NCBI GenBank assembly: GCA_963677495.2
Contig: CAXXOU010000002.1
Location: forward strand, 230,523 to 294,522
Length of the DNA stretch: 64,000 nucleotides
Source: Candidatus Cloacimonadales bacterium
GTDB lineage: Bacteria > Cloacimonadota > Cloacimonadia > Cloacimonadales > JAFGVF01
Reading direction: 5' to 3'
Below are positions 20,050-37,501 of this stretch, piece by piece. The translations under genes were made by a program, and so were the position numbers. The notes under the pieces are model-generated. The model was not told where the DNA came from, ran no database searches, and saw only the letters and a program-made list of their open reading frames with translations. Within the stretch, counting starts at the first letter, position 1; every line of letters starts with the position of its first letter.

Positions 20050-20052
20050 GAC

Positions 20053-20655
20053 CTACCCCTGCTTCTTTTTAAGATAAAAGTTGTTGTTTATAATCCAAAT
20101 CATAATCGCAAGAAGGAAGAATGCACTTGGAGCCATAATCATAATCGACCAGCTTACCCACCAGTCACCGAGTATCTGAAAACCAAACAGTGAACCGAAA
20201 CCGAATAACTCTCTAACGGTTGCAATTGCTAATAGCACAAGCGTATAACCTATTCCGGCACCCAAACCATCAATCATCGAATCGATTGGGCTATTCTTAG
20301 CAGCAAAGGCTTCTGCTCTACCCATAAGTATACAATTAGTGATAATTAAACCAATGTATGGTCCGAGATTCTTACTTATCTCAGGCATATAGGCTTTTAA
20401 GACAATATCTACAATAATCACATATGCTGCGATAATAAGTGTTTGCACCATCATACGTACACTTCGAGGGGTGTAATTTCGTATTATGGAGATAGTGAAG
20501 TTTGCCATAACTAAGGCGAAGATAACACCAAGTCCCATAATCAGACTGTTCATCATAAGATTAGTAACAGCAAGACTTGAGCAGATACCAAGAATTTGTT
20601 TCCAGATTGAGTTATCTGTGAAGGCACTGTTCATAAAGATCTGTTTTTTTGTCAT
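20053..20655 (-). CDS. nqrD: NqrD/RnfE-family membrane subunit
   Basis: 200 aa. WKQILGICSSLAVT and LIITNCILMGRAEAFA motifs. Confidence 0.8.
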   Translation of the reverse strand: MTKKQIFMNSAFTDNSIWKQILGICSSLAVTNLMMNSLIMGLGVIFALVMANFTISIIRNYTPRSVRMMVQTLIIAAYVIIVDIVLKAYMPEISKNLGPYIGLIITNCILMGRAEAFAAKNSPIDSMIDGLGAGIGYTLVLLAIATVRELFGFGSLFGFQILGDWWVSWSIMIMAPSAFFLLAIMIWIINNNFYLKKKQG

Positions 20656-21293: not shown

Positions 21294-21294
21294 C

Positions 21295-22236
21295 CTACAC
21301 CGCCTTCGCTTTTAATTTCTTCTTTTTCTCAGCTTCTAGGAAGAAGTAATCAATCAAAGGCATGAAACAGTTTGCTAAGAGGATTGCAAACATAAAACCT
21401 TCTGCAAAAAGAGAGAAACGTCTTATAAAGACAGTTAAAAAACCTATCATTATACCGTAAATCCATAGAGCTTTAGAGTTCTTAGGTTGAGATACTGGAT
21501 CAGTAGACATAAAAACAGTTCCAAACATAAGACCGGCACCTGCTAAGAAGTATGGCAGTTGTGAGACCGGGTAAAAAATAGCAGTGGTAACAATGAATCC
21601 AATCAACGTAGATACCATTGCCTGCCATTTAGCAGTCTTGGTAACTATAAGATATATCGCTGCTGCTAAAATTAGAAGTGTACTGGTTTCACCTATACTA
21701 CCCGGTATGAAACCTGCAAAGCTGTTCCACAAAGAGTATCCAAAATCACCTGTATTTCTATATTGAGCCAGCATGGTAGCAGAAGTAGTCAATTCAGGAG
21801 CAGGATTAAAGTGAGCAAAGCCACCCGGGAATCCTGTGTAAATGCTATTCCATGTCGTTGCTAACTGCTTTGGGAAAGAGATATAAACGAATGCTCTTCC
21901 AACAATTGCTGGATTAAAAATGTTAAGTCCAAAACCACCAAATACCATTTTACCGAATGCAACACCAAATGCCGCTGCAACAGCTGCTATCCATAATGGA
22001 ATTGCAGGAGGTAAAATAAGTCCCAGTAAAGTTCCGGTGACGAACACAGCCATAGAAACTTTACCCATTTTCTTCTTTCTAATAAACAAATACTCAGTTA
22101 GAAATCCAATACCGTTTGTTACAGCCAAAACTGCCAGAATCTTCCATCCAAACAGGTATACAGCCATAACTATAATCGGAACAAGGGAATAGAGAACTCT
22201 GTTCATCATCGCTTGTTTCAGGATTATTTGCTTCAT
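21295..22236 (-). CDS. nqrB: NqrB/RnfD-family membrane subunit (short, RnfD-sized)
   Basis: 313 aa. GKMVFGGFGLNIFNPAIVGRAF motif and a TSAT flavinylation-like site. Confidence 0.75.
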   Translation of the reverse strand: MKQIILKQAMMNRVLYSLVPIIVMAVYLFGWKILAVLAVTNGIGFLTEYLFIRKKKMGKVSMAVFVTGTLLGLILPPAIPLWIAAVAAAFGVAFGKMVFGGFGLNIFNPAIVGRAFVYISFPKQLATTWNSIYTGFPGGFAHFNPAPELTTSATMLAQYRNTGDFGYSLWNSFAGFIPGSIGETSTLLILAAAIYLIVTKTAKWQAMVSTLIGFIVTTAIFYPVSQLPYFLAGAGLMFGTVFMSTDPVSQPKNSKALWIYGIMIGFLTVFIRRFSLFAEGFMFAILLANCFMPLIDYFFLEAEKKKKLKAKAV

Positions 22237-22475: not shown

Positions 22476-22926
22476 GTTACTTCCTCTTCATTAAGTTTAG
22501 GAATGGGTGTTTTTAGTGTCAATCAAAAGTTGTGATTAGTTTGACTGTTTAGTATATATTTCAGCTCTAGTCCATACGATCTACAGGAACAAGGCTTCCA
22601 CCGAAATATTGTATCACTATAGTTGATAAACGTAATTTACGTACTCGGTATGGAAGTGAGTTTAAGTCTATTAATTGTCACTATGAAATTGACTTAACTT
22701 GTCACCTTGTAGTGATAGTATGACGTGAGAATGATCTAAACATAGAGTAACGGACTTAGTGATTCAAGAGGCTTGGATAAAGCTAGAACACAACCCAAAA
22801 AAGCCACCAACTTATCGAAGTAATAATCCCATTCGTCGAAAAGATACCAAGATACATCTAACTAATTTGAAATCGAAGTTTAAATAGTATATGTTGTAAC
22901 CAGAAATGAATGAAAGAGGAAGTTTT

Positions 22927-24267
22927 ATGAAAAGATATGGAGCAATGAATGGATTCTTCTTACTTGTTCTGGTAATATTGTCATCAAACTTGATTGCAGA
23001 ATCGACAGCATATTCACTTGAACAATGTATTGACTTTGCTTGGGAACATAGTACGACTATGAGTAGAGTTAACAACTCCCTTGAAAGTAAACAGGCTAAT
23101 TTAGAACAGTCAAAGGCTGCGCTGCTACCCAATCTGTCTGCGTCAGTTAATCAATCTTATAGTACAGATGAAAACTATGTTGATTCAACATCAGGTGGTT
23201 ATTGGGATGGTAGTGATAACTCCAATACAAACCTTGCCTTGAGCTCGAGTCTAACGCTTTTCAATGGGTTAAAGCTGATAAACACAATCCGCCAAAGCAA
23301 GGTGGAGCTTTCTGCAACTGAGCAAGAAACACATTTTGAACAAGATTTGCTTAGCTTAGATGTTTTGAAAGCATATATCAATGTCCTGATAGCTAAAGAG
23401 AGATTAACAAATAGCGAAACCCAACTCAAATCATCTGAAGAGCAAGTAGAACTTTCTGAAGCGAGGAAGGAAGCAGGGATTATCTCCAATTCAGACTACT
23501 TGAATATCAAATCGCAGTATGCATCTGATAGAGCAACTATGATTGCTGCAATGAGCACATTTAGAATTAACACAGTTTCCCTAATGCAGACAATGAACAT
23601 GCCACTTAGGGATACTTTCGAGATTATAGAACCGGATTTAAACACACTGTTGAATAACCAAATTGATGTAGATTCAAATCTTATCTATGAAACAGCTTTG
23701 GGAGTTAGACCTGAACTTAAGACTGCTGAATTAAATGCTGAAAGTGCACAAATGGAAGTTAAGATAGCTAAGGCAGATTATCTGCCAAGTCTGACTCTCA
23801 ATGGAAGTCTGGAATCAAGTTATTCAGATGCATTGGATAGTGTAGATTTTGCCGAACAGATGGAGAATCAGTTCAAAACATCAGTAGGCCTCAGGCTTTC
23901 AATCCCTATCTTCCAGAACTTAAAGGTCAAAAACCAGGTAACTCAGGCATCTATACAAGCTAAAAACACACAGCTTGAGTTGATCGATTTAAAGAATAAC
24001 CTTCGAAAGAGTGTTGAGCAAGTTTGTACTGATCTTGAGACAGCATATATGAACTATCAAGCCTCATTAGATCAATTCAACGCTGAGCAAGAAGCATACA
24101 AACTCGCAGATGAGATGTTTGAACAAGGGATGATTAATTCAGTAGATTATCAAACAGCAAAGAATAACTATGTTAATGCAGAGAACAGCTTAAATCAAGC
24201 GAAATACAGTGTCTTACTGCAAAGCAGAATCTTAAGTTTCTACAAAGGTGAATCAATAACATTTTAA
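22927..24267 (+). CDS. TolC-family outer-membrane efflux protein
   Basis: The track ORF starts at 22906, but Met at 22927 has an AGAGGAAG RBS and is followed by a signal peptide. Two-repeat TolC architecture (LSLEQCIDFAWEHS..., coiled helices). Confidence 0.85.
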   Translation: MKRYGAMNGFFLLVLVILSSNLIAESTAYSLEQCIDFAWEHSTTMSRVNNSLESKQANLEQSKAALLPNLSASVNQSYSTDENYVDSTSGGYWDGSDNSNTNLALSSSLTLFNGLKLINTIRQSKVELSATEQETHFEQDLLSLDVLKAYINVLIAKERLTNSETQLKSSEEQVELSEARKEAGIISNSDYLNIKSQYASDRATMIAAMSTFRINTVSLMQTMNMPLRDTFEIIEPDLNTLLNNQIDVDSNLIYETALGVRPELKTAELNAESAQMEVKIAKADYLPSLTLNGSLESSYSDALDSVDFAEQMENQFKTSVGLRLSIPIFQNLKVKNQVTQASIQAKNTQLELIDLKNNLRKSVEQVCTDLETAYMNYQASLDQFNAEQEAYKLADEMFEQGMINSVDYQTAKNNYVNAENSLNQAKYSVLLQSRILSFYKGESITF

Positions 24268-24277
24268 GGGAGAAACC

Positions 24278-25564
24278 ATGAAAAAGATTAAGTTTACAAA
24301 GAAATCAGTAGTAGTGATGATCATAGTCCTAATAGTTGCTTCAGTTGCAACATATCTGTTCAGTTCAAAGAGTGAGAGTGGTTTCACAATTGAAACTGTG
24401 AAAGTAGAAAAGGGTTCAGTTAGTAATACAATAACAGCAACCGGAACGCTTCAGGCAACCGATACAGTAGTTGTTGGTACACAAGTATCGGGGGTGATTC
24501 AGAAGTTGTATGTGGATTTCAATTCAAATGTAAGGAAAGGACAGCTAATTGCTGAGCTTGATAAATCAACCCTTCAATACAGTTTGGAGAATGCTGAAGC
24601 GGATGTAGATAACTCAGAAGCCGAGTACAACTATCAGAAGTCAAACTATGAAAGGATGCAGGAGCTATATAATAAGGGATTCCTTTCTCAAAGTGATTAT
24701 GATTTAGCTGAATACACTTATAAAAAAAGTGAAGCAAATCTTAAGTCTGCTAAAGCTAACCAGAAGCGAGCAGAACAAGATTTATCATATGCGACAATCT
24801 ACTCTCCGATAGATGGAGTAGTTCTCAATTGTGCTGTGGAAGAGGGACAAACAGTAGCTGCAAGCATGAGTACACCGGAGCTTTTTACAATTGTGAATGA
24901 CCTTACAACCATGCAAGTGGAAGCCAATATTGATGAAGCTGATATTGGCATGGTAGAAGAAGGACAAAGAGTCGAGTTCACAGTTGATGCTTTTCCGGAT
25001 GAAACATTTGATGGTGTTATATCTGAAGTTAGGTTGCAACCAACTTCAGCATCTAATGTGATTACATATCCTGTGATTATAAAAGTCTCTAATCCCGAAC
25101 TTAAGCTTAAACCCGGCCTTACTGCAAGTATTACTACTTATGTTGAAGAGGCAAATGATGTACTTGTTATATCAGAAAAAGCAACAAGTTTTGAACCAAG
25201 CCCTGATGTTTTACATAGTTATATGAGCCAATTTGAAGCAAATAAATCTCTAAGACCTAATAGAATACCGGATGGTGATAGAAATCAAGGAAATCCCCCA
25301 GAAATGGATGATTCTCATAAGATTGTGTGGGTGAAGACAAATAATGATATCAGACCTGTAGAGATAGAAACAGGTATTGCAGATGGCTCAAATGTAGAAG
25401 TATTATCAGGAATAGAGGAGAATAGTGAAGTGCTCGTAGTTTTAAGTAGTGTATCCGGTACTAAGACGAAGAAAGAGAGCAACGATGCGAAGAGTCCATT
25501 TGTTCAGGAAAGAAAACGAGGTTCAGGGAATGGTGGTCCGCAGGGTCCTCCACCACAGAATTAA
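24278..25564 (+). CDS. Efflux periplasmic adaptor (MacA/HlyD family)
   Basis: 428 aa. TM anchor, lipoyl-like VSGVIQKLYVDFNSNVRKGQLIAELD ... IYSPIDGVV hairpin architecture, and a Gly/Pro-rich tail. Confidence 0.85.
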   Translation: MKKIKFTKKSVVVMIIVLIVASVATYLFSSKSESGFTIETVKVEKGSVSNTITATGTLQATDTVVVGTQVSGVIQKLYVDFNSNVRKGQLIAELDKSTLQYSLENAEADVDNSEAEYNYQKSNYERMQELYNKGFLSQSDYDLAEYTYKKSEANLKSAKANQKRAEQDLSYATIYSPIDGVVLNCAVEEGQTVAASMSTPELFTIVNDLTTMQVEANIDEADIGMVEEGQRVEFTVDAFPDETFDGVISEVRLQPTSASNVITYPVIIKVSNPELKLKPGLTASITTYVEEANDVLVISEKATSFEPSPDVLHSYMSQFEANKSLRPNRIPDGDRNQGNPPEMDDSHKIVWVKTNNDIRPVEIETGIADGSNVEVLSGIEENSEVLVVLSSVSGTKTKKESNDAKSPFVQERKRGSGNGGPQGPPPQN

Positions 25565-25574
25565 GGAGAGTAGC

Positions 25575-26336
25575 ATGAATATCAAAGAAATAATAAGAAT
25601 AGAGAATATGCATAAGCACTATACTTTAGGTGACGAAACTATCAAAGCTTTGAATGGAATAAGCCTGTCAGTGCCGGAAGGTGATTTTGTTGCAATCATG
25701 GGTTCAAGTGGCTCAGGTAAATCAACAATGTTGAACATACTTGGATGCTTGGATTTACCAACAAGTGGAGAGTATTTTCTCGATGGCATAAATGTGAAAT
25801 CATTGAGAAAAAACCGTTTGGCTGAAATCAGAAATCTGAAACTGGGATTTGTTTTTCAATCATATAACCTGTTGCCTAAAACATCAGCTATAGACAATGT
25901 ACAACTACCATTACTTTATAATCCAAAGATAAGCAAAGTAGAGCGTAGAGAACGAGCAGAGCAAGCATTAATAGCTGTAGGCTTGAAGGATAGGATGAAG
26001 CATCTGTCAAACCAAATGTCAGGCGGTCAACAACAAAGAGTAGCAATTGCCCGTTCTATTGTAAATAATCCGATTGTTATATTCGCAGATGAAGCAACCG
26101 GTAATTTAGATACAAAGACATCATACGAGATTATGGCTCTCTTTCAGGAACTGAATGAAAATGGTATGACTATCTGCTTTGTTACACATGAACCGGATAT
26201 TGCCTCTTTTACTAAGCGGAATGTTGTCTTTAGAGATGGTGTGATTATCGAGGACAATGTCAATTATGAAATGCGTAATGTGATGGATGTTCTCGCTGAC
26301 TATAACAAAGTAACTAACGAATATCAGGTGGGATAA
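25575..26336 (+). CDS. ABC transporter ATP-binding protein (MacB/LolD type)
   Basis: Walker A GSSGSGKST, signature LSGGQQQRVAIAR, Walker B IVIFADEATG. Start moved from the track's 25449 to the ATG at 25575 (AAGGAGA RBS, no overlap with the adaptor). Confidence 0.9.
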   Translation: MNIKEIIRIENMHKHYTLGDETIKALNGISLSVPEGDFVAIMGSSGSGKSTMLNILGCLDLPTSGEYFLDGINVKSLRKNRLAEIRNLKLGFVFQSYNLLPKTSAIDNVQLPLLYNPKISKVERRERAEQALIAVGLKDRMKHLSNQMSGGQQQRVAIARSIVNNPIVIFADEATGNLDTKTSYEIMALFQELNENGMTICFVTHEPDIASFTKRNVVFRDGVIIEDNVNYEMRNVMDVLADYNKVTNEYQVG

Positions 26337-26337
26337 A

Positions 26338-27558
26338 ATGAAACTAACAAATATAATTATGATAGCGATTACAGCTATTAAACGGAACAAGACACGTTCC
26401 ATCCTGACAATCTTAGGTATTGTAATTGGTGTTGCAGCTGTTATTGCAATGTTAGCAATAGGGTATGGCTCTAATCAAAACATCAAAGATACAATATCTT
26501 CCATGGGTACTAACCTAATAAATGTTATGCCTGCACATCAGGTTGTAGGTGGTGTGAAGCAAAGCAGAACCAGTTCACCGACCTTAACTGAAGAGGATGT
26601 TGCATATCTTCAAGAACATAGTGAGTTGATTGATGCAGTATCTCCTGAACTTGATGGTCAGGGACAGATAGTGTATGGCTCGAACAATTGGCCTACTTCA
26701 ATATATAGTGGTGATGAGGACTACTATTTTATAAAGAAGTTTACAGTTGAATCAGGGCGAATGTACACAGCAAAGGAGATAAAGAGTGCTTCAAAAGTAT
26801 GCCTTATTGGGCAGACAATAGTAGAGAATGTCTTTGCAGAGAATGAAGACCCTATAGGAAAAGTTATTCGCTTCAACAATATCCCATTCAAGGTCATTGG
26901 TATATTAGCCGAAAAGGGTGACAACACTTTCGGGCAAGATCAAGATGATATGGTATTAGCTCCATACACTACAGTCATGAAGCGATTATTCAGACAAACA
27001 CATCTTAGAGCAATTGTGATTTCAGCAAAATCAGAAGATGCCATAGAGGAAACAAGTGCTGAGATTACAACTTTACTTAGAAAGTCACATAAACTTAAAA
27101 GTGATGAAGATGATGATTTTGAGATAAGAACTCAAGAAGAGCTGATCAGTAACTTCACCTCAATATCAGAGATGATGCTTGTGTTATTAGGTTCTATTGC
27201 TGCAATCTCATTGGTTGTTGGTGGCATAGGTATTATGAATGTGATGTATATGTCTGTTACTGAGAGAACACGTGAAATCGGACTTAGAATGGCGATTGGT
27301 GGTAAAAGTAAGTTCATCTTGCAACAATTTCTTTGCGAAGCGATGCTCTTAAGTATATTGGGTGGAATTGTAGGTGTACTCGTTGGAATAGTGGCCTCAA
27401 ACATAGTGGAGAAAGTATTGGGATGGCCAATATTGATTACATCTAACTCAATAATCATTTCATTTCTCTTCTGCACTTTTATTGGAATATTCTTTGGTTG
27501 GTATCCTGCAAGAAAAGCATCTGCATTAAATCCTATTGACGCTTTAAGACATGAGTAG
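26338..27558 (+). CDS. ABC transporter permease (MacB/FtsX type)
   Basis: 406 aa. N-terminal TM helix, large periplasmic domain and C-terminal FtsX-like 3-TM bundle (GIGIMNVMYMSVTERTREIGLRMAIG). Confidence 0.85.
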   Translation: MKLTNIIMIAITAIKRNKTRSILTILGIVIGVAAVIAMLAIGYGSNQNIKDTISSMGTNLINVMPAHQVVGGVKQSRTSSPTLTEEDVAYLQEHSELIDAVSPELDGQGQIVYGSNNWPTSIYSGDEDYYFIKKFTVESGRMYTAKEIKSASKVCLIGQTIVENVFAENEDPIGKVIRFNNIPFKVIGILAEKGDNTFGQDQDDMVLAPYTTVMKRLFRQTHLRAIVISAKSEDAIEETSAEITTLLRKSHKLKSDEDDDFEIRTQEELISNFTSISEMMLVLLGSIAAISLVVGGIGIMNVMYMSVTERTREIGLRMAIGGKSKFILQQFLCEAMLLSILGGIVGVLVGIVASNIVEKVLGWPILITSNSIIISFLFCTFIGIFFGWYPARKASALNPIDALRHE

Positions 27559-27583
27559 ATAGTTTAAACTTGAAGAGGTGATT

Positions 27584-28663
27584 ATGATAAATAGAGAGAA
27601 AGTCTGGCGGGTATTACCCCATATAATCGGAGTATTGCTCATAGCGATTATGCCAATGTTTTTGTTCGATGAGTCCGATGAGAGAATTAGAACCTGGACA
27701 TACAGATATTATTATCAACTATTCTTTTTGATTATAGCATTTTATGGTAATTATCTGTTCATTGTACCCCAATTCTTTCTCAAGAACAAACGGATCAGAT
27801 TCTTCCTAATCTTGATAATGTTTGCCGTCTCTTTGACATGGATCTCTCAATCAATATCGAAGAAACTCGATATTTATAAACCACCTCGCCGTGAGATGAA
27901 CACAACCAATGAAGTTAATGAAATAACTGAAGAGAAACGTATCTTGGGTTTACATCCAAGAATTATGGACGATTTACTATTCCTAGTCTTAGTTTTTGGT
28001 TTTAGTACCGGAATGAGCATTCTTCAAAAGCAGAGGAAAGATAAGGAAAAACAGCAGAAGCTTGAGAAGGCTAATGTTGAGAATGAGCTCGCTTTTTTAA
28101 AGAATCAAATTAATCCTCATTTCTTTTTTAACTCTCTCAACAATATCTATGCTTTAATAGATATAGATGGCACCAAAGCCCAGCAGGGTATTGAGAAACT
28201 TTCAGGGCTCATGCGTTATCTTATCTATGAGTCTAACAGCCCCTATGTGCCCGTCAGCAAGGAGTTTGAATTTACACGAAACTATATCGAGTTAATGCGT
28301 CAGAGATTGACTAAGAAGGTAAAGCTTGATGTTGATATTAGCGATGAAAACAGTGGTGCAAACATACCTCCCTTACTCTTCATATCCTTCATTGAAAATG
28401 CTTTTAAACACGGGATTAGTTATAGAAGTGATTCGTTCATTGAGATAAAACTACACACGACTGAGGATACTGTTCATTTCAGTTGTAAAAACAGTATCCC
28501 GGCAGCTCAAGATAAGCAAACCAATAATCAGGGTGGGGTAGGAATTACCAATATCAGGAAAAGGCTCAATATTCTTTATGGTAATGAGGAGCGATTGATT
28601 ATTAACGAGGACAAGAATGAATACTTTGTAACTATGAAGATACCCTATGAGGTGAAATCATGA
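27584..28663 (+). CDS. LytS/YehU-type sensor histidine kinase
   Basis: N-terminal TM helices. His_kinase motif NQINPHFFFNSLNNI and HATPase region (FIENAFKHG, GGVGITNIRKRL). ATG at 27584 is preferred (GAAGAGG RBS) over the GTG at 27578. Confidence 0.85.
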   Translation: MINREKVWRVLPHIIGVLLIAIMPMFLFDESDERIRTWTYRYYYQLFFLIIAFYGNYLFIVPQFFLKNKRIRFFLILIMFAVSLTWISQSISKKLDIYKPPRREMNTTNEVNEITEEKRILGLHPRIMDDLLFLVLVFGFSTGMSILQKQRKDKEKQQKLEKANVENELAFLKNQINPHFFFNSLNNIYALIDIDGTKAQQGIEKLSGLMRYLIYESNSPYVPVSKEFEFTRNYIELMRQRLTKKVKLDVDISDENSGANIPPLLFISFIENAFKHGISYRSDSFIEIKLHTTEDTVHFSCKNSIPAAQDKQTNNQGGVGITNIRKRLNILYGNEERLIINEDKNEYFVTMKIPYEVKS

Positions 28664-29340
28664 ATAAAATAACCTGTATTGCCATTGATGATGAGCCGTT
28701 AGCTCTTGGATTGATAGCCGGACATATAAAGAAAACCCCCTTTCTTGAGCTGAAGGGTGAATTTGATAATCCTATTGATGCAATGGAATTCTTAGAAGAA
28801 AATCCGGTACAACTTCTGTTTATGGATATTCAGATGCCGGATTTGACTGGGATTAAATTCGCTAAAGTACTTGATCGAAAGTACAAAGTTATCTTTACAA
28901 CTGCTTATGAAAAGTATGCTCTGGATGGGTTCAAAGTCGAAGCTCTTGATTACCTCCTCAAGCCGATTAGCTATGAAGTTTTCTTGAAATCAGCCAATCG
29001 GGCAAAACGCTATTTCGATGAGCAAAGTGATAGTAATGAAAGTAACTCTGAAATACCCTTAAAACTTGATAAAGAATTCCTATTCGTTAAGTCTGACTTC
29101 CAAATCAGACGCTTTGAATACAAAGATATCCTCTATTTTGAGGGATTGAAGGACTATATTAAGCTCTATGTGAAATCCTCAAAGGAAGCAGTCGTTTTCC
29201 ATGCAACTCTGAAGGCTGTTGAAGCCAAACTACCAACCGACAGATTCATGCGTACTCATAAATCTTATATTGTGAACCTCCAGAATGTAAGACTTATCGA
29301 AAAATATAGAATCATATTTGGCACTAAATATATCCGGTAA
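28660..29340 (+). CDS. LytTR-family response regulator (C-terminus apparently truncated by a frameshift)
   Basis: Receiver domain (IDDEP...LLFMDIQMPDLTG...LLKP) plus a LytTR domain. The start overlaps the kinase stop (ATGA). The shifted frame 29337-29393 encodes a typical LytTR tail. Confidence 0.85.
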   Translation: MNKITCIAIDDEPLALGLIAGHIKKTPFLELKGEFDNPIDAMEFLEENPVQLLFMDIQMPDLTGIKFAKVLDRKYKVIFTTAYEKYALDGFKVEALDYLLKPISYEVFLKSANRAKRYFDEQSDSNESNSEIPLKLDKEFLFVKSDFQIRRFEYKDILYFEGLKDYIKLYVKSSKEAVVFHATLKAVEAKLPTDRFMRTHKSYIVNLQNVRLIEKYRIIFGTKYIR

Positions 29341-29404
29341 GCGATAAATATAAAGCGACTTTCGATAATTTTGTTAAGACCCAATTCCTGTAACCTATTG
29401 TTTA

Positions 29405-29545
29405 GAACCGGTTAAATCCATATTCTTTGGATTGCATTTACTATGTAAATGCAACAGCCACATGACGCTGAAAGCATTCACTCAACTAAAATGAGCCACT
29501 AAACTAGGCACCGCAAGGCAAACCGACATAGTCGGTTAACTCCAT
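29405..29545 (-). repeat. REP-like unit (same family as the RAYT-flanking array), reverse orientation
   Basis: The reverse complement reads ATGGAGTTAACCGACTATGTCGGTTTGCC...GTTGCATTTACATAGTAAATGCAATCCAAAGAATATGGATTTAACCGG. Confidence 0.8.
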
Positions 29546-29594
29546 GAACAAAAGAGACACTAACCGTAGTCAGTGTCCTAATCTTGAATACAGA

Positions 29595-30170
29595 TTATCG
29601 AAAATTTTTGGGTAATACTTTCTCCTTCAAGTTTTCAACAATCTTCCGTATCCTCTTCGTTTTAGTTGCAGGGCGCTTAGCCATAGCTATCCAAGCCAAC
29701 AGACCTCTCTTCAATGACTTTGATAGGGAATTATAATAGGTCTTTGAACCGGGGTGGGATTTAAAAGCTTGTTCGAGTTCATCCGGTATCTGCAATGCTT
29801 CTACTGAATCAAGTATTGTCCAGGAACCGTTCTCTTTAGCAAGCTCAATTACGTTTAATCCTGCATTTGTCATTAGATTTGCTTTAACAAGTGTTTGGAC
29901 CTTATTCTTATTCACTTTAGACCAAGTGCTGTTAGGCTTGCGTTTAGAATAATATTGCATATATCTGTCTTTATCTATTGATTTCTTTGTACTATCAATC
30001 CAGCCAAAGCAAAGGGCTTCATCTACAGCATCACTCCAAGTGATTGTTGGGGTTGCTGAACTTTGCTTGTAAACTACAATCCATATAGCATCTTTTGTCT
30101 GATGGTTTTGTTTTAACCATTCTCGCCATTCTTTCCGATTCTTAGGGCAGATCTTTTCCGTTGTTTTCAT
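29595..30170 (-). CDS. YdeI/OmpD-associated family protein
   Basis: 191 aa. REWREWL..NH....IW......S....ITWSDAVDEALCFGWIDS pattern and the C-terminal half are typical of the YdeI (OmdA) family. Confidence 0.7.
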   Translation of the reverse strand: MKTTEKICPKNRKEWREWLKQNHQTKDAIWIVVYKQSSATPTITWSDAVDEALCFGWIDSTKKSIDKDRYMQYYSKRKPNSTWSKVNKNKVQTLVKANLMTNAGLNVIELAKENGSWTILDSVEALQIPDELEQAFKSHPGSKTYYNSLSKSLKRGLLAWIAMAKRPATKTKRIRKIVENLKEKVLPKNFR

Positions 30171-30234
30171 GTTTTGATATTGATAGGCAGTTTGTATATG
30201 TCAACATAATAGTGCTCAATCCAGCTTCAATGAG

Positions 30235-30331
30235 ATATCTAACCACGGATGATCCACGGGTAAACCAGGCCTAAACGACGGGAGCTGTGGTTAACCCGCG
30301 GTTTACCTGTGGTCAACCCGTGGTTAGATAT
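30235..30331. repeat. Phased-word element, copy 8 (palindrome-bounded CCNNGG array)
   Basis: 14-bp perfect terminal inverted repeat ATATCTAACCACGG / CCGTGGTTAGATAT. GG dinucleotides start at 30247, 30258, 30268, 30280, 30289, 30300, 30311 and 30322 (spacing 9-12, mostly 11). Confidence 0.75.
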
Positions 30332-30497
30332 GCTTTTAGTATGCCAGTTGAAGGCAACGAATTTATATATATCTTGCAGAAAAGTTAATATATCTTTAAT
30401 TATGTGCAGGATATTTTTACCGATGTTGTCATAGAATGAGTAAGAATAATCGGAGCCGATAAACAAACAACACACACTAACTATAAGCGAGAGAATT

Positions 30498-31334
30498 ATG
30501 TCAGATAATCTAACATTTAAACGTAAGGAACGTAAATACATAATCTTAGAAAATACTTTCGAACAGGTTGTGGATTCAATTAAAGAGAAGCTTCCAATTC
30601 ATATATTTGATGGGGTTAATCCTTATACAGAACTAGAGACTATTTATCTTGATACTAAAGAACTTATGCTATTTAAGGAGTACTTGAATGGGCGCAGCTT
30701 CAGATTCAAAATCAGACTCAGACGATATGGCCATGACGGTGTCTTTGATAATAAATATCTGGTAGAACTGAAAGTAAAGCATAATGGCATTTCAAGAAAA
30801 AAACGCTTTATATTACCGGCGGAATGCTTAGATGATTTCCTGAAAGGTGAGAAGATAAAACCTGCTATCAAAGAAGCAAACAAAGGCTTTGTGGGAGCAC
30901 AAAAGACCTATAAGTTGATTGCAATACTTATTGAAATGAACCAGTTTGTACCTGTTATGAAAACAAGTTATGAGAGAATTGCATTTCAAAAGAAATCTAA
31001 AAAGAACAGACTTACAATAGATCGGAATATTACTCATACGAGACTTATAGGTAAACCTTGCGAAGAGAAATTAGACACTTATGTCTTAGAATCAAAGGTA
31101 ATCGGTAAGACACCAAAATGGTATAAGAAGATGGTGAACAGACTATCTCTTCTAAAGCAAAACCGTTTCTCCAAGTTTGCGACCGGGATGAACTCACTTT
31201 ATTTCCCTCAAAGAGGAAAGTATAATTTCTCAAATGACGACTTCGAGATAGATGAGATGCCGGAAGTGATAAAAGAATCATTTGACCTTATGAAATCATA
31301 TCTTAAACTTAGTGACGATATTGAAGTGAGGTAA
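30498..31334 (+). CDS. VTC-domain (polyphosphate-polymerase-like, CYTH/triphosphate-tunnel fold) protein
   Basis: 278 aa. FKRKERKYII start, ETIYLDT, FKIRLRRYG and LVELKVKHNGISRKKRF are the hallmark strands of bacterial VTC-domain proteins. Confidence 0.75.
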   Translation: MSDNLTFKRKERKYIILENTFEQVVDSIKEKLPIHIFDGVNPYTELETIYLDTKELMLFKEYLNGRSFRFKIRLRRYGHDGVFDNKYLVELKVKHNGISRKKRFILPAECLDDFLKGEKIKPAIKEANKGFVGAQKTYKLIAILIEMNQFVPVMKTSYERIAFQKKSKKNRLTIDRNITHTRLIGKPCEEKLDTYVLESKVIGKTPKWYKKMVNRLSLLKQNRFSKFATGMNSLYFPQRGKYNFSNDDFEIDEMPEVIKESFDLMKSYLKLSDDIEVR

Positions 31335-31339
31335 CAAAT

Positions 31340-31882
31340 ATGCAGGAACTATTTGAGGTAATTCAGAACAGTGCTAGCGGAGGAATAAGTCAATCCCCAC
31401 TACAGATTCTTCTCAATCTTACAATGGCAATGATACTTGGTCTTATCTATGCTTATGTCTATCGACTGACCTATGTGTATAGCGGAAGTTTTGCTAAAGA
31501 AAAAGATAAGAAAGTACTTAAGTTGGAGATGAAAAGTATACAATACACTCTTCTTCTTCTTTCAATTGGTGGTGCCTTTATCTGGATAGTTGTTGCAGAT
31601 AACTTGGTGAGAGCTTTTGGTCTTGCCGGTGCACTCAGCTTGATTAGGTTCCGTACGGTTGTGAAAGATCCAATGAATACGATTAAAGTGTTCTATGCAA
31701 TTATCATCGGTATGTCCTGTGGATTGAGCCAGTACTATACAGCAATTATTGGTACTGCTTTCATTTGTTTTGTCTTAACTGTAATATATTTCATCAAAAA
31801 CCGAGAGAAAGAACAAAAAGCACTAAAGAAAAGCCTTGAGACACAAGATGTTGAGGAAGTAGTTGATGAGAGTAAAGAATAG
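31340..31882 (+). CDS. DUF4956-family membrane protein
   Basis: 180 aa with 3-4 TM helices. The FGLAGALSLIRFRTVVKDPMNTIKVFYAIIIGMSCG motif is characteristic of DUF4956, the usual partner of bacterial VTC-domain genes. Confidence 0.7.
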   Translation: MQELFEVIQNSASGGISQSPLQILLNLTMAMILGLIYAYVYRLTYVYSGSFAKEKDKKVLKLEMKSIQYTLLLLSIGGAFIWIVVADNLVRAFGLAGALSLIRFRTVVKDPMNTIKVFYAIIIGMSCGLSQYYTAIIGTAFICFVLTVIYFIKNREKEQKALKKSLETQDVEEVVDESKE

Positions 31883-33184
31883 ACTATATCTGATAGTACT
31901 TATCCTCTACATAAGCTTTTCTTTAAGAGCACAGACACTTGATGATTTTATGTCTGAGATGCTCTTGAAGAATAGTGATTACCAGGAAGCAGTATATAGA
32001 TTACATCAGGAGAAAGCTTCGCATGATATTGATTCATCATCGGAGTTTGGGGAGCTGAGTCTTAGTTACAGTAAGAATGATAACGAGATTGAGCGTAGTA
32101 TTACTAAATCATCTGTCGAAGATACAGAGATTAATGAAGAGGATGAACGCTGAAGGTTGAGTATACTAAGCAATTCTTTCCTAAAGACTTTGATGCTACT
32201 GAAGATGCCATTAGTTATAAGATCAACAAATTCCGCTATCAACAGAGCTTGCTAAATGTCCGTTTGAAGAGTATGAATGATATACTTGAGGATATGATCG
32301 AATGGTATGAGATAAGCGAGAAACTTACTTTATATAAAGAAGAGCTAGGCATGTTGCATGCCGAAAATGTTATCCTTGATGAATATGAGAAGCAGAACAT
32401 TGTAAGCCCCAATAAGCTACTAAAGAATCTGAAAGCGATAGATAAACTTGAAGATAGAGTATACTACTCACAGAGTGAAATTAAGAAGTACGAAGCGAAT
32501 TATGGCGAAAGATTAGAAGAGTTTAGGCAAGTTTTTAATCAATACATGCTTACTCAACCGCAAGCCGATACTTTGAGTTTTACTAGTTACAGTATCGATT
32601 TACTTAATAGTGTTGAGAGGAAGATGGAGAGAATTAGTAACTCAATCAAGCTTCATACTCTTTTCGCATTCTTACCGGAAGTGAATCTGTCAGTCTCATA
32701 TAATCAGCGAGATATTGATCAGGATTGGGTGACCACAGAAGATGGAGATGTTGATGAACTTACCCGTGTCCAATCAGAAGTCTATCCTGAAGCAGAACTG
32801 GAACTATCAATACCTTTGAATCTGTTTTCCAATATTCGAGGTAAGAATAGAATGCTGAAATCGTTTAAACAAGAATTGAGGTATCGAAAAAATGAGCTTC
32901 AACTTGATTTAAACGAGTTTGTTATAGAACTAAAAACTGCATTATTAAGTAACAGCACCTCAGTTACCCGTAAAGAGCGAATCCACGAACTTTCGCAAGA
33001 ACAGCTAAATGGTGTTAGAGCTATGTTTAATGAGAACCCGGAACTTCTTGGTGCTGCTCCGGAAGATAGACTCCAGGAGGAGATTATTTCAGCTTCTAAA
33101 GCAGAAATCAATTATAATGTTAGTAGAATGAATCTCTTTAAGACAATATATATCATGAACCGATTTGATGAGGGGAGAGAATGA
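31866..33184 (+). pseudogene. Divergent TolC-like outer-membrane factor, split by one frameshift at about 32147-32153 (or an assembly indel)
   Basis: The 31863-32153 ORF carries a signal peptide plus LDDFMSEMLLKNSDYQEA. The frame of ORF 32249-33184 is open back to 32147, and the junction reads ..EEDER|(W)KVEYTKQFFPKDF if one base is added. Two-repeat helical architecture. Confidence 0.55.
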
Positions 33185-34287
33185 AGAAGCAAAAGATAAA
33201 AGTTATATTTGTACTTACACTTTTGGTGATAACAGGAACAATTATTGTATCATATTTCATAGATTCCAATTCTCAGAAGCTACCGGCAGTTGTTAGAAGC
33301 AATAAAGTGTTTGTGAGTACAGAAGTTTCCGGCACGATTGCTAACTATTTTGTTGCCTCGATGCAGGAAGTTAAGAAAGGACAAGCAATTGCAAAGCTTG
33401 AGAATCCACGACTTACAGAAAAGCTCAAAGCTCTCAGAAGTGAGTATGATAATTATAATAAGCTTGTTAAGTCAGCAGAAGATGGAGATATTTTAAAACT
33501 TGAGCTTTTCAAGATAGAGAAGGATATTCTTGAAACTTTTGAAGATATTCAGAAAGCTGAGTATAAACTAAACAAGCTTTATCAAGAGCTTGATATTCAA
33601 ACCCTTGATAACCAAAGTGCAATCAAAAAATACAATTCCATTAAGAAACTCTATGAAGAAGGTAAAATCTCCCAAACTGAATATGACCTGAAAGCTAAAG
33701 AGTATCTTTCCATTATAAACAAATACGCCAACTGGCAAGCTGAATCGTCAATGATAACAAAAGAGCTTGAAGCTAGTAAAACTGTTTTGAAGATGCAGAA
33801 AGCACAACGAGACATAATCAATTCAAATACGGCTATACTTGCTTCTAAGAACTTAATAGAGTTAGACAAGATTAGAGTGGACATTGCTGATCTAGAGCAT
33901 GATATTGAGAATCTGACTATTCTATCACCCTTAGATGGAGTGGTAACAGGTTTACGCAATCGCCCGGGTGAACGAGTAAAGAATGGTGATGTAATTGCCG
34001 AAATCTCTGATATAAGCGATGTCTGGCTTACTGCTTATGGGAGTTCATACTCCAATCGTGAACTTAAAGAAGGCAACAAAGTTACCATCTACTCTAACAA
34101 TAAAGAGAAGATTGCCGGTGTTGTATTCTCAATCTCACCTGTTATGGAGAAAGTGAAATCATTGAGTGCAACTTCTGAAACGGTTAATACTTATACTAAG
34201 ATTAAGATTGGCTTTATTGACCACAATGAAGCTATGAAGCACTTGACTCCGGGAGAGAGGTTGTTTGTTAGGATAAGCTTGGATTAA
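33181..34287 (+). CDS. HlyD-family membrane-fusion (periplasmic adaptor) protein
   Basis: 368 aa. TM anchor, VSTEVSGTIANYFV..VKKGQAIAKLE, a long coiled coil, and ILSPLDGVVTGL..PGERVKNGDVIAEI. The start overlaps the previous stop (ATGA). Confidence 0.8.
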   Translation: MKKQKIKVIFVLTLLVITGTIIVSYFIDSNSQKLPAVVRSNKVFVSTEVSGTIANYFVASMQEVKKGQAIAKLENPRLTEKLKALRSEYDNYNKLVKSAEDGDILKLELFKIEKDILETFEDIQKAEYKLNKLYQELDIQTLDNQSAIKKYNSIKKLYEEGKISQTEYDLKAKEYLSIINKYANWQAESSMITKELEASKTVLKMQKAQRDIINSNTAILASKNLIELDKIRVDIADLEHDIENLTILSPLDGVVTGLRNRPGERVKNGDVIAEISDISDVWLTAYGSSYSNRELKEGNKVTIYSNNKEKIAGVVFSISPVMEKVKSLSATSETVNTYTKIKIGFIDHNEAMKHLTPGERLFVRISLD

Positions 34288-34725
34288 ATATGGATTTATG
34301 GAATTAACCGACTATGTCGGTTTGTCGTGTCACATTTCGTTGAGTAGCTGATAATAGTTTAGTTATGCTTTTTTAATGTCGCGTGGCAGTTGCATCTACA
34401 CAGTATATGCAGTCCAAAGGAATATGGAATTAACCGACTATGTCGGTTTGTCGTGTCACATTTCGTTGAGTAGCTGATAATAGTTTAGTTATGCTTTTTT
34501 AATGTCGCGTGGCAGTTGCATCTACACAGTATATGCAGTCCAAAGGAATATGGAATTAACCGACTGTGTCGGTTTGTCATGTGGCACTTAGTTTAGTGGC
34601 TCATTTTTGTTTAGTTGATGCTCTCAAAGTCGCGTGGTAGTTGCATCTACACAGTAAATGCAGTCCAAAGGAATATGGAATTAACCGACTGTGTCGGTTT
34701 TTCATGTGGTACTTAGTTAATTTGT
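34288..34725 (+). repeat. Tandem array of a 125-126-bp REP-like unit (3 full units plus 1 partial) upstream of the RAYT gene
   Basis: Units start (TATGGAATTAACCGAC) at 34297, 34423, 34549 and 34674. Units 1 and 2 look identical by eye. Each carries hairpin AACCGAC-NNN-GTCGGTT and a second stem TGCAT...ATGCA. Confidence 0.9.
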
Positions 34726-34749
34726 AATAAGTTCAAGTAAGGATGTAAT

Positions 34750-35286
34750 ATGTATAAAGAGTATAAGCATAATCCCCCGCACCTTTTTCTTGCAGACACA
34801 AAATACTTTATCACAACTTCAACCTTAGGAAGGTATAAATATCTTGGAACTAAAGAAGCCAAAGATGCTATTTTGCATTATCTCGTGAAAACAATCAACC
34901 ACTTCAATTGGATATTAGAAGATTGGGTCATTTTAGATAATCATCTACACTTAATGATGACAGCTCCAGAGGACGCTACTAATCTTCCAGAATTAATGCA
35001 TAACATCACTCGATTTTCTGCCAATTGGCTTTCTAAACATGGTGTCAAAAAGATAGAAAGACAATATTTCCATAACTATTGGGATACCTGTATAACATAC
35101 GAAAGGTCATATTATTGTCGTCTAAACTATATTTGGAATAACCCTGTAAAACATGGATATGTTGAATACCCGGAAGATTGGGAGTATGGGAGTTATTTCT
35201 ACAGAATAAGAGAACTTGAAAACGACACTCATAAGATAATGAACAACTATCCCATTGACAGAATTCATGTTGAAGATGACTTTTAA
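34750..35286 (+). CDS. REP-associated tyrosine transposase (RAYT; IS200/Y1 HUH family)
   Basis: 178 aa. HUH motif in LDNHLHLMM, and catalytic Tyr region RLNYIWNNPVKHGYV typical of RAYT/Y1 transposases. Embedded in the REP-like array. Confidence 0.8.
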   Translation: MYKEYKHNPPHLFLADTKYFITTSTLGRYKYLGTKEAKDAILHYLVKTINHFNWILEDWVILDNHLHLMMTAPEDATNLPELMHNITRFSANWLSKHGVKKIERQYFHNYWDTCITYERSYYCRLNYIWNNPVKHGYVEYPEDWEYGSYFYRIRELENDTHKIMNNYPIDRIHVEDDF

Positions 35287-35287
35287 A

Positions 35288-35413
35288 TATGGAATTAACC
35301 GACTGCGTCGGTTTGTCTTGTCACACATAGTTTAGTGGCATATTTTTATTTAGTTGATGCTCTCAAAGTCGCGTGGCAGTTGCATTTACATAGTATATGC
35401 AGTCCAAAGGAAT
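35288..35413 (+). repeat. REP-like unit downstream of the RAYT gene
   Basis: TATGGAATTAACCGACTGCGTCGGTTTGTC...GTTGCATTTACATAGTATATGCAGTCCAAAGGAAT, in the same orientation as the upstream array. Confidence 0.9.
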
Positions 35414-35427
35414 AGAAGGAAACGAAC

Positions 35428-36081
35428 ATGAAACCATTAATACTTTTCGATGTGAACGGAACATTGATTAAGAGAGATAGCAGAACTGATCTGCCATATG
35501 AATATGCAGTAAACGAGCTTTTAAGTATCGAGAATAGCCTTGAGGGTGTTAATACTTCAGCAAGATCAGATGTAGATGTCCTCATGGAAATACTTGAAAA
35601 GCGAGGGTTGGAATATACAGATAAGCTTTGGAATAAGTTCATGACATTATATATGAAACAGCTCGAAGCATACAAATCCACCGATGTCTGGAGAGAGAAT
35701 AGCACAGCGGTTGAGTTTGTTACAAAGCTTGCGGATGCTGGTTACCCCTTAGCGTTAATAACCGGAGAGCTGAGTATTGGTGCAAAATATAAGCTTACAA
35801 AACTAGGAGTTTGGCAGTATTTCCCTACAGGTGGTTTCGGTGAAGATGGGCTCAAACGCTTTGAAATTGCTGATAAAGCTGTAGATAATTCAATCAAGCA
35901 TTTCGGTCATGAATTTGAGAATATCTTCCTCATCGGTGATACTATTCTTGATATAAAGACAGCAAGACACCTTGGAGCTAAAGTAATCTCCATTACTACC
36001 GGCTCAAATACACGTGAAGAGCTTGCTGAGTGCAATCCAGATTATCTAATAGATGACTTTCAAGAATTAGACCTATTTTAA
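35428..36081 (+). CDS. HAD-superfamily hydrolase (phosphatase-like)
   Basis: 217 aa. Motif I variant LFDVNGTL (second Asp replaced by Asn), motif II ITGE region, motif IV LIGDTILDI. Confidence 0.7.
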   Translation: MKPLILFDVNGTLIKRDSRTDLPYEYAVNELLSIENSLEGVNTSARSDVDVLMEILEKRGLEYTDKLWNKFMTLYMKQLEAYKSTDVWRENSTAVEFVTKLADAGYPLALITGELSIGAKYKLTKLGVWQYFPTGGFGEDGLKRFEIADKAVDNSIKHFGHEFENIFLIGDTILDIKTARHLGAKVISITTGSNTREELAECNPDYLIDDFQELDLF

Positions 36082-36127
36082 AACTTAATCCCATTTTCTC
36101 CACCTACAAGATGTTATATTTTCAACT

Positions 36128-36305
36128 TTTACCCTTATTCCCCCTCATTGCCCTGCAGTAATCCTTGAAAGACCCCTGTGAAACCCTTGGGAAACACTTG
36201 GGTAACCCTTGGGTTAAATACCAGGGAGTAAACAATTTATTAATAATTTAGAATTTAGTTGAAGGCATTTGTTACTGCTGAGAGAAGAGAGGGAATGAGA
36301 GAGTA
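36128..36305. repeat. Phased-word hairpin element, copy 2 (closest paralogue of copy 1)
   Basis: CCCTTATT..CTCATTGCCCTGCAGTAATCCTTG aligns with the reconstructed copy 1. CTTGG at 36186, 36197 and 36208, with related words at 36164 and 36176. Right arm TTACTGCTG...AATGAGAG. Confidence 0.75.
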
Positions 36306-36399
36306 CTGTTTAGGATTGGAGTGATTATATCCTTTTTAGTGGACTATTGATATTCTATAAGTTAGTTGGAATAAGTGATCTAAATTATATTGACATATT

Positions 36400-36415
36400 A
36401 AGCATGCGCATGCTT
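36400..36415. promoter_or_regulatory. Perfect 16-bp palindrome AAGCATGCGCATGCTT, a candidate operator about 25 nt upstream of the kinase-like gene
   Basis: Self-complementary over 16 bp. It lies just downstream of a TTGACA hexamer (36390-36395) and upstream of the GGGAG RBS and the ATG at 36440. Confidence 0.4.
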
Positions 36416-36439
36416 TTATGGTATTAATTGGGAGTAAAA

Positions 36440-37501
36440 ATGCTACATAATTTCTATAACAAACTTATAGCGGGAGATCTCACTTCTGAACATGAGTACT
36501 TACATAATAGGCTTTGTCTTAGTCAGAGGGACAAAATTGTTAATCTTGAAGTGAAGGAGACTATAAAGACAAATACTGCGAATCTGATCTTTCTTGACGT
36601 TGAGATACTAAAGCCTGAAAATGAGACGGTGCATGAAAAGCTTTTGCTAAAACATTTTAAAGCAAACGATTCTAACAGAAACTACTTAAACCATTGTATT
36701 AGAGAAATAGAGTTCTACAATCTGGAGAGGAAGACTCTTTCCTTGCCGGTTGCAACTTGCTATGATACATATGTCTCCGAAGATAAAAGTATGACTTGTC
36801 TTCTTTTAAAAGACCTATCAGCAGATTATAGTTCTGAGCTCAGATCTAAATGCCTATGTTATTGGCTAAGTGCAGCTAAGTGTTTAGCAGAGTTACATGG
36901 AAAATTCTGGAATAAGAGATATACAGCTGATGAGTTAGTGGAAGAGCAAGTATCTAAGAAAGTGCAAGAACATAGAAATAATCTTGATTCTGCTTTTAAG
37001 AAGTTCGAGAAGTATGTAAAGAATCATTTAGATCACAGATTTTTAAGTATTTACTCTGATGTGCTAACAATTTCTAATGATTTGATGAGAGAAAGACTTA
37101 GCAGATTGTCTGAAGAGGAAAACATTACATTAATACATGGAGACTCACATATCCATAACTTCTTGTTTAACAAGATTAATCATAATGCATTACTAACAGA
37201 TTTTCAGTTTTGGAACGAAGGTATAGGAGTAGCTGATTTAGCTCATTTAACAAGAGTATCATTTCCAAATGAATTTGGAGCTAAGGAGCATAAATTGATA
37301 GTCGAAACTTATCATGATTCACTATTGGAGCAAGGTGTTTCAGGTTATACATTTGAGCAATGCTGGAAGGATTACCAAAAACATGTTGCGTGCATGCTAC
37401 TAATCCCAATGTGGCAATATACTATCTTCGGACTGGAGTTTGAGAAGTGGGGAAAGGATGTTAAAACTTTGATTAAACACTATATGGATGTGCTGGTGTA
37501 A
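36440..37501 (+). CDS. Aminoglycoside/choline-kinase-like phosphotransferase (APH / EcKL-type fold)
   Basis: LIHGDSHIHNFLF (HGDxxxxN catalytic loop) and TDFQFW (DFG-like). ATG at 36440 is preferred over the track's TTG at 36428. Confidence 0.7.
   Translation: MLHNFYNKLIAGDLTSEHEYLHNRLCLSQRDKIVNLEVKETIKTNTANLIFLDVEILKPENETVHEKLLLKHFKANDSNRNYLNHCIREIEFYNLERKTLSLPVATCYDTYVSEDKSMTCLLLKDLSADYSSELRSKCLCYWLSAAKCLAELHGKFWNKRYTADELVEEQVSKKVQEHRNNLDSAFKKFEKYVKNHLDHRFLSIYSDVLTISNDLMRERLSRLSEEENITLIHGDSHIHNFLFNKINHNALLTDFQFWNEGIGVADLAHLTRVSFPNEFGAKEHKLIVETYHDSLLEQGVSGYTFEQCWKDYQKHVACMLLIPMWQYTIFGLEFEKWGKDVKTLIKHYMDVLV

Follow-up and report, generated by a model that had tools for sequence, protein, structure and literature searches.

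The Candidatus Cloacimonadales bacterium of assembly GCA_963677495.2 carries a cluster of four genes that appears to join parts of known kinds in a combination not described before: a VTC-domain protein, a small inner-membrane protein of the family DUF4956, an outer-membrane factor (OMF) and a membrane-fusion protein (MFP) of the HlyD type. The cluster lies at positions 30498-34287 of a stretch of 64,000 nucleotides (contig CAXXOU010000002.1, positions 230,523 to 294,522 of the forward strand), called here the window. We read the four genes as a single envelope-spanning module, conserved in the phylum Cloacimonadota, in which the polymerisation of polyphosphate would be coupled to its export across both membranes. 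Judging from gene context, we give this joint reading a probability of about 0.5. The features on which it depends are as follows.

30498-31334, + strand: gene for the VTC or triphosphate-tunnel (TTM) protein (278 amino acids, no signal peptide; Pfam VTC).
31340-31882, + strand: gene for the DUF4956 or MgtC-like inner-membrane protein (180 amino acids; Pfam DUF4956).
31866-32153, + strand: 5' fragment of the OMF-like gene (signal peptide, first helices and first beta-strand region; premature TGA).
32148-32153, + strand: frameshift site in the OMF-like gene (a G is missing from the conserved TGG, or Trp, codon, so that CGC TGG AAG has become CGC TGA AG).
32147-33184, + strand: remainder (3') of the OMF-like gene, read in the -1 frame with respect to the 5' fragment (predicted divergent TolC-fold outer-membrane factor; Pfam OEP).
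33181-34287, + strand: gene for the HlyD-type MFP adaptor (368 amino acids, N-terminal transmembrane anchor).

An earlier, sequence-only reading of this DNA had assigned these four domains and had described the genes as tightly packed. Pfam searches bore out all four assignments, and the spacing is as it had been given: a gap of 5 nt between the VTC and DUF4956 genes, an overlap of 17 nt between DUF4956 and OMF (if the OMF start is taken as the ATG at 31866) and an overlap of 4 nt between OMF and MFP. The picture of four packed genes holds for the first, second and fourth as open reading frames (ORFs); the third is split by a frameshift that the sequence-only reading missed. A simple consensus scan counted zero terminator-like sites on the + strand within the operon and 20 promoter-like sites where 22 were expected, and as a guide to promoters and terminators the scan is uninformative. 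A search of 29000-36500 against Rfam gave no match.

The first gene provides the chemistry on which the polyphosphate reading is built. Its product matches the Pfam family VTC (PF09359) with 136.5 bits (cutoff 23), covering profile positions 1-235 of 235, and a profile of 16 homologues matches the structures of yeast Vtc4 (PDB 3g3q, E 4.7e-16). In the profile alignment, K200, R264, R266, K281, E426, S457 and K458 of Vtc4 fall on K13, R73, R75, K92, E198, S225 and K226 of the window protein, and these seven residues are invariant in 16/16 homologues. The catalytic role of K200, K281, S457 and K458 of Vtc4 reportedly goes back to work by Hothorn and colleagues in 2009. The remaining three positions are those altered in R264A/R266A/E426N, a catalytically impaired variant of Vtc4 used for cryo-EM (PMC9911596). 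By sequence, then, the window protein is a candidate polyphosphate polymerase. Its close homologues all come from Cloacimonadota, and the VTC proteins of that phylum share a conserved C-terminal extension of about 45 residues past the Pfam domain (31235-31334 in the window, residues ~236-278), with the motif P.RG.YNF followed by a predicted amphipathic stretch. Perhaps this extension could serve as a docking segment for membrane partners.

The partner encoded by the second gene is the cluster's only conserved candidate for an integral inner-membrane protein, as the sequence-only reading had it when it named DUF4956 the inner-membrane candidate. The match to Pfam DUF4956 (PF16316) is modest, 31.7 bits with a cutoff of 30.6 over profile positions 21-109 of 169, and that to Pfam MgtC (25.4 bits) is below its cutoff of 31.4, while relatives of the protein carry precomputed matches to both families. 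A model made with AlphaFold2 (AF2) shows approximately five helices. The window protein ends about 25 residues past the last of them, a transmembrane-only version with a short charged tail, without the C-terminal soluble (ACT-like) part found in most members of the family. Homologues in loci L104 and L109, outside Cloacimonadota, have a soluble C-terminal extension of about 90 amino acids, which by eye and by comparison with PMC12345266 is ACT-like; the DUF4956 protein of S. intermedius carries a C-terminal ACT domain (PMC12345266). Among relatives the DUF4956 protein is the best conserved of the four (57-81% identity, as compared with about 44-72% for VTC, 33-54% for MFP and 24-41% for OMF). 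Conservation is nearly uninterrupted over a core of about 55 residues, in which GGA.IWIVVADNLVRAFGLAGALSLIR.RT is constant in 18 species except for two variable sites, and N88, R91, R103, R105 and T106 are retained across phyla.

The third gene is the most divergent. Against Pfam OEP (PF02321) the window fragment gives one partial stretch of 29 bits (cutoff 22); the family is matched by 6/9 homologues at E<=0.1, marginally (best 4e-7). The signal peptide was judged by eye, and NCBIfam has no model for the OMF protein, nor for the VTC or DUF4956 proteins. A profile of the OMF family found no canonical OMF or TolC in PDB or among 1.84 billion proteins, and in the latter set it found 42 representatives at E<=0.001. 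Every member whose context was examined lies in a VTC-DUF4956 cluster. The AF2 model of the homologue P0077 (mean predicted confidence, pLDDT, 72) has helices of 67-70 residues and one predicted beta-hairpin, its first beta region being of low confidence. When the model was compared with PDB by Foldseek, the top 42 matches were all OMFs, including OprJ, TolC, OprM, CusC, SilC, CmeC, MtrE and VceC (E-values as low as 7.5e-6; probability 1.0 for all but the 42nd, which has 0.99; TM-scores of 0.32-0.46). Because those matches are all OMFs, the product of gene 3 is, according to the model, a very divergent TolC-fold outer-membrane factor.

The fourth product is an adaptor of familiar build. It matches HlyD_D23 with 62.3 bits and HlyD_3 with 51.5 bits, and its lipoyl domain is split (Biotin_lipoyl_2 at 43-74, Biotin_lipoyl at 236-275) by an insertion of about 160 amino acids, presumed to be an alpha-hairpin. 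The protein has no membrane-proximal domain. It could not be assigned to a subfamily (EmrA, MacA, DevB, RND_mfp and so forth), since all 17 NCBIfam matches are below their curated cutoffs; the matches to the models for EmrA, YbhG (PRK03598) and DevB are full-length and sub-threshold.

What binds these four genes into a module is the constancy of their order. The loci compared were 4 from look-up and 22 from GTDB species representatives, of which 24 offered enough DNA (the contigs of L016 and L018 end too early). All 24 have the order VTC, DUF4956, OMF, MFP, with flanks that differ, and they include loci whose VTC proteins are down to 43-44% identical. In every Cloacimonadota locus the VTC gene comes directly before that for DUF4956. 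OMF and MFP overlap by 4 nt in 13 loci, and the OMF ORF is full-length in 23/24 (that of L004 has 331 amino acids and lacks the first ~100 residues). A scan of metagenomes found an OMF-like gene directly after DUF4956 in 23/23 Cloacimonadota-type contigs with enough downstream DNA; the MFP gene follows wherever the contig reaches that far, and the OMF gene is always one unbroken match.

The sequence-only reading had named three outcomes that would speak against it: failure of the domain searches, an MFP/OMF linkage unique to this genome or with a pump gene just outside, and an OMF gene that is a dead pseudogene in all relatives. None of the three was observed. The linkage holds across Cloacimonadota and is seen again in one further lineage, and in no relative examined is the match to the OMF gene broken, though in L004 it is shorter.

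In the window itself, the OMF gene is interrupted. Frame 0 ends after 96 codons at the TGA at 32151-32153, the remainder is open solely in the -1 frame, and the whole (31866-33184) is 1319 nt, a length not divisible by three. One G put back (CGC TG[G] AAG) restores a Trp found in 8/9 homologues, with Tyr/Arg/Gly elsewhere. The restored protein of 439 amino acids aligns end to end with relatives of 431-443 amino acids, reads ...EEDERWKVEY... against ...EEDERWKIE... in homologues and keeps all the residues that are invariant in the family. The frameshift is peculiar to this window, because gene 3 is unbroken in every relative, and it is present in the deposited assembly, because the gene annotated publicly on the source contig (374 kb) is a fragment of 303 amino acids (P0075). 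A programmed frameshift was considered and rejected: the permissible window is 4-7 nt with no slippery heptamer, and the restored G recreates the conserved Trp. Either the duct is broken in this genome or the assembly is in error at that base.

The module may be a decaying remnant in this genome, its frameshift real and its duct no longer functional, and we regard this as a serious possibility, at somewhat less than even odds. In its favour are the stop and change of frame at 32151 and the fragmentary public call. Moreover, giant ORFs totalling about 15 kb run uninterrupted through other parts of the window, and indel errors are therefore rare in this assembly. An IS200-like transposase gene and arrays of REP-like repeats abut the operon, and a CotH kinase gene (considered below) has been displaced from it by 17.5 kb. 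Against decay, the change is of a single base, with no other lesions, and the invariant residues are kept in the restored protein, so that any inactivation must be very recent; and a consensus error at that base is possible.

The reading of the cluster as an exporter of polyphosphate also draws on its neighbours. In 23 related loci, three ORFs on each side of the cluster were scanned for Pfam families. Upstream, LTD and Por_Secre_tail were each counted 15 times, CotH 13, Dockerin 8 and Metallophos 7; downstream the counts were lower (Por_Secre_tail 5, LTD 3, PHO4 3, PhoU_div 3, CotH 2 and Ppx-GppA 1). A CotH kinase with the sorting domain of the type IX secretion system (T9SS) adjoins the cluster in about half of the loci. 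The secreted CotH kinase gene to which the sequence-only reading had pointed in the window is genuine:

10245-13028, - strand: gene for a secreted CotH kinase (927 amino acids; LTD, CHB_HEX_C, CotH and a T9SS C-terminal sorting domain by Pfam).

It lies 17.5 kb from the operon, and its product is likely a functional partner of the operon all the same.

Phosphate-related genes recur in the flanks. In L017-L019 and L024 a series on the same strand runs from CotH through one or two dockerin-Metallophos genes to VTC and the rest of the cluster, and seven dockerin-Metallophos genes are directly upstream in these four loci. Their products, dockerin-bearing calcineurin-like phosphoesterases of about 370 amino acids, are encoded in one subclade of Cloacimonadota, with almost no spacing (L017 5862-6968; L018 2653-4880; L019 5780-6907; L024 4748-6978). 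By analogy with yeast Ppn2, they could be secreted polyphosphatases. In L009 a Ppx/GppA gene (6178-7104) begins 224 nt after MFP on the same strand. Genes for a PHO4 transporter and PhoU_div, convergent with the cluster, are downstream of it in L004 (11920-14050), and L022 (5723-7854) has ORFs of 503 and 214 amino acids whose identity as PHO4/PhoU_div was inferred from size and layout. No other gene for the synthesis of a substrate is conserved in the flanks of the 23 loci.

Nor was a pump found where one would ordinarily be sought. By Pfam, no ABC, RND, MFS or PET transporter is encoded inside the operon, and among the three flanking ORFs per side in the 23 loci none of the efflux families ABC, RND or MFS recurs. 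The earlier claim that there is no canonical inner-membrane pump therefore stands for the operon and for what is consistently adjacent in relatives. It overlooked a complete OMF-MFP-MacB system (ABC ATPase plus MacB_PCD/FtsX permease) at 22906-27558, on the same strand and 3-8 kb upstream of the VTC operon. The OMF of this system is canonical (453 amino acids, OEP 200 bits), and after the system comes a pair of genes for a histidine kinase and a response regulator of the LytTR type, the whole block (22906-29340) lying 1-8 kb upstream.

Could the MFP and OMF simply be an ordinary efflux duct that uses a pump encoded elsewhere, such as the MacB 3 kb upstream, their adjacency to VTC reflecting co-regulation or chance? 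MFP/OMF pairs can share pumps, as TolC systems do, and the MacB-type pump (25449-27558, same strand) is complete. However, MacB comes with its own adaptor and channel and is not adjacent to the VTC cluster in relatives. The order of the four genes is kept in >40 loci with different flanks, with the 4-nt OMF/MFP overlap in 13, and the OMF family is tiny and seen only in the VTC-DUF4956 context. Finally, a different MFP/OMF pair has been recruited to VTC-DUF4956 in the lineage of L108/L109, described next. We consider a distant pump very improbable.

Outside Cloacimonadota, VTC and DUF4956 are commonly companions. A DUF4956 profile search returned 783 proteins, and in other DUF4956 loci Pfam VTC was found in 13 neighbouring ORFs and, by tblastn, VTC was beside DUF4956 in about 30/52. 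Among the loci examined, OEP and MFP genes occur beside DUF4956 in one lineage alone, L108/L109, where the order is VTC, DUF4956, MFP, OMF (the last two swapped relative to Cloacimonadota, with a 3-nt gap) and the GC fraction is 0.52. There the DUF4956 protein is 31-34% identical to that of Cloacimonadota, the MFP is 24% identical to the window MFP over 116 amino acids, and the OMF, a canonical one (OEP 67 bits, both repeats), shows no relation to the Cloacimonadota OMF family by hhalign. Since MFP and OMF are non-orthologous, their presence suggests, at the level of sequence, that a duct was recruited to VTC-DUF4956 independently.

An apparent VTC-DUF4956 fusion ORF in L104/L105 was set aside as an artefact of a spurious high-GC frame, an in-frame stop separating the genes. 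In two further contig families outside Cloacimonadota (L027 7001-8885; L060 and L064 6064-7942), DUF4956 is overlapped by 23-32 nt by a gene of 439-464 amino acids with a weak Porin_5 match, with no VTC gene adjacent. We count this other pairing of DUF4956 with an outer-membrane protein in favour of the export reading. The 439-amino-acid gene of L027 was rejected as a homologue of the Cloacimonadota OMF (hhalign probability 0.6%).

The trio of CotH, VTC ("polyphosphate polymerase") and DUF4956 has been described among the accessory genes that accompany Pel loci in Gram-positive bacteria (10.1101/768473; PMC12345266), and it is also present in a C. perfringens locus (PMC2879425). These monoderm modules are without MFP and OMF (10.1101/768473, PMC12345266), as is expected if those two genes serve the crossing of an outer membrane. 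In S. intermedius, deletion of the DUF4956 and CotH genes changed Pel levels and aggregation (PMC12345266). In the literature on DUF4956, on CotH with VTC or polyphosphate and on bacterial VTC we found no paper on a link to MFP/OMF, nor, in that on Cloacimonadota with polyphosphate, any paper on polyphosphate export.

How might such a module work? According to the proposed mechanism, the cytoplasmic VTC/TTM enzyme would build polyphosphate from the gamma-phosphate of ATP in the manner of yeast Vtc4. The enzyme would dock on an oligomer of the MgtC-like DUF4956 protein, and this would pass the growing chain through the inner membrane. The anchored HlyD-type adaptor would form a periplasmic tube onto the divergent TolC-fold trimer, by which the chain would cross the outer membrane, and chain growth, possibly with help from the proton-motive force, would substitute for the missing ABC/RND/MFS pump. 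Once at the cell surface, the polymer would encounter the CotH kinase sorted there by the T9SS and, in some relatives, also the dockerin-bearing calcineurin-like phosphoesterases. From gene context we infer what the substrate is, that DUF4956 acts as a channel, which proteins touch and which way the chain moves; the comparative data strengthen this interpretation, and support for it is partial.

Several observations weigh against it. We know of no bacterial VTC protein shown biochemically to make polyphosphate, nor of any DUF4956 protein shown to conduct anything. MgtC, the named protein to which DUF4956 is most closely related, is considered a regulator rather than a transporter. TolC-type ducts are typically electronegative inside, and the lumen would therefore be unfavourable for a polyanion. 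The AF2 model of the DUF4956 protein is mediocre (pLDDT 68), and since Foldseek found no match to it in PDB at E<=0.001, no fold could be assigned. In the Verrucomicrobiota-like loci L028-L030, which are diderm, VTC-DUF4956 occurs without MFP/OMF. In the window itself the OMF gene carries a frameshift. And in S. intermedius, deletion of the VTC gene left aggregation unaltered (PMC12345266).

Some of the same facts would fit a different division of labour, in which DUF4956, MFP and OMF carry out efflux of some other substrate (a cation, a metabolite or the precursor of a surface polymer) driven by the proton-motive force, and VTC, as a cytoplasmic maker of polyphosphate or a triphosphatase, only regulates or energises the process. 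The DUF4956 protein has invariant D87, N88, R91, R103 and R105 in predicted helices, in the manner of proton-coupled carriers; the gene is at times without an adjacent VTC gene (L027, L060); and the S. intermedius deletions of DUF4956 and VTC differ in phenotype. On the other hand, VTC is directly upstream of DUF4956 in every Cloacimonadota locus, its catalytic residues intact, the neighbours are phosphate-related (Metallophos, Ppx, PHO4/PhoU) and no other conserved gene for the synthesis of a substrate is offered by the flanks. On balance such efflux seems unlikely.

The proposed export of polyphosphate by polymerisation can be set beside four known arrangements. With the eukaryotic VTC complex (Vtc4/Vtc3/Vtc1) the module shares the TTM/VTC domain, the equivalents of all seven of the Vtc4 residues listed above, and a polymerase that goes together with a small membrane protein of several helices; in both, on our proposal, synthesis is coupled to membrane transit. 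It differs in that the Cloacimonadota system has no SPX sensor domain and keeps its catalytic and membrane parts on separate proteins, that the membrane partner is DUF4956/MgtC-like rather than a three-helix domain of the Vtc1 type, and that MFP and OMF extend the path over the periplasm and the outer membrane. The likeness to non-RND tripartite systems (HlyBD-TolC, MacAB-TolC, EmrAB-TolC, DevBCA-HgdD) lies in the membrane-anchored adaptor with a long insertion, presumed to be a hairpin, and no membrane-proximal domain, the predicted TolC fold of the OMF and the translational coupling of the MFP and OMF genes. Unlike them, the cluster has no ABC, MFS, RND or PET transporter in the operon or recurring beside it, its OMF is too divergent for sequence profiles to find canonical TolC, and what it presumably carries is an inorganic polymer synthesised in place.

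The module in Gram-positive Pel loci (Streptococcus, Clostridium, Bifidobacterium) likewise has the CotH, VTC and DUF4956 families genetically linked, with CotH secreted. Its hosts, however, are monoderms without MFP/OMF, DUF4956 there has a C-terminal ACT domain that the Cloacimonadota protein does not, and the Pel genes linked to it there are absent here. In synthase-dependent secretion (cellulose by BcsA/B/C, alginate by Alg8/44/K/E, and Pel), the chain is pushed along a dedicated path that spans the envelope by its own polymerisation at the inner membrane, and no separate pump is used. The resemblance is in logic alone: the proteins are entirely different ones (a glycosyltransferase synthase, a TPR scaffold and a beta-barrel porin), and they make a polysaccharide.

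No function is known for the VTC-domain proteins of bacteria, for DUF4956 or for most CotH kinases other than those of spores, and we know of no explanation for how bacteria place polyphosphate outside the cell. A duct always follows VTC-DUF4956 in Cloacimonadota, and a different duct serves in L108/L109, which together provide a first directional clue: the pair handles something that leaves the cell. If export of polyphosphate is confirmed, a pump-less type driven by polymerisation would be added to the tripartite export systems, and secreted kinases would have a source of phosphoryl donor. More speculatively, and with more doubt than confidence, one might see here a new class of secretion system, in which a VTC/TTM polymerase on an MgtC-like channel replaces the ABC/RND/MFS pump and extrudes polyphosphate. 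CotH kinases sorted by the T9SS and secreted phosphoesterases would use the polymer at the surface, for instance as a donor of phosphoryl groups outside the cell that is independent of ATP, or else as a polymer that forms a matrix or chelates. If true, this would supply a function for the widespread bacterial CotH-VTC-DUF4956 module.

The DNA just past the operon is rich in repeats. The window has 8 copies of a REP-like hairpin, AACCGACNNNGTCGGTT, every one of them on the + strand; the number expected by chance is 0. Copies are at 34295-34720, 35286-35414, 29521, 41169 and 41294. Four tandem units, about 126 nt apart, begin 8 nt past the MFP stop codon, and the first of these hairpins may double as a terminator of the operon. 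The IS200-like Y1 transposase gene (34750-35286) is flanked by REP-like units, with one unit after it, and together they look like an arrangement of the REP/RAYT type. Just downstream of the transposase gene are genes for a HAD hydrolase and then an EcKL/APH-type small-molecule kinase (35428-37501, + strand).

T9SS cargo is also encoded elsewhere in the window. Three paralogous giant proteins of 1620-1688 amino acids are encoded at 42755-47617, 48358-53301 and 56768-61834, each with Propeptide_C25, a gingipain-like Peptidase_C25, NIDO and a FlgD_ig/Por_Secre_tail C-terminus. Further cargo consists of an M1 peptidase (5685-8570) and a Reg_prop protein (13980-16145). An rve-type integrase gene is at 3881-4669 on the minus strand, and a minus-strand cluster (18346-22236) includes genes for an RnfD/NqrB-family subunit (21295-22236) and an Fe-S/FAD/NAD oxidoreductase (18346-19449).

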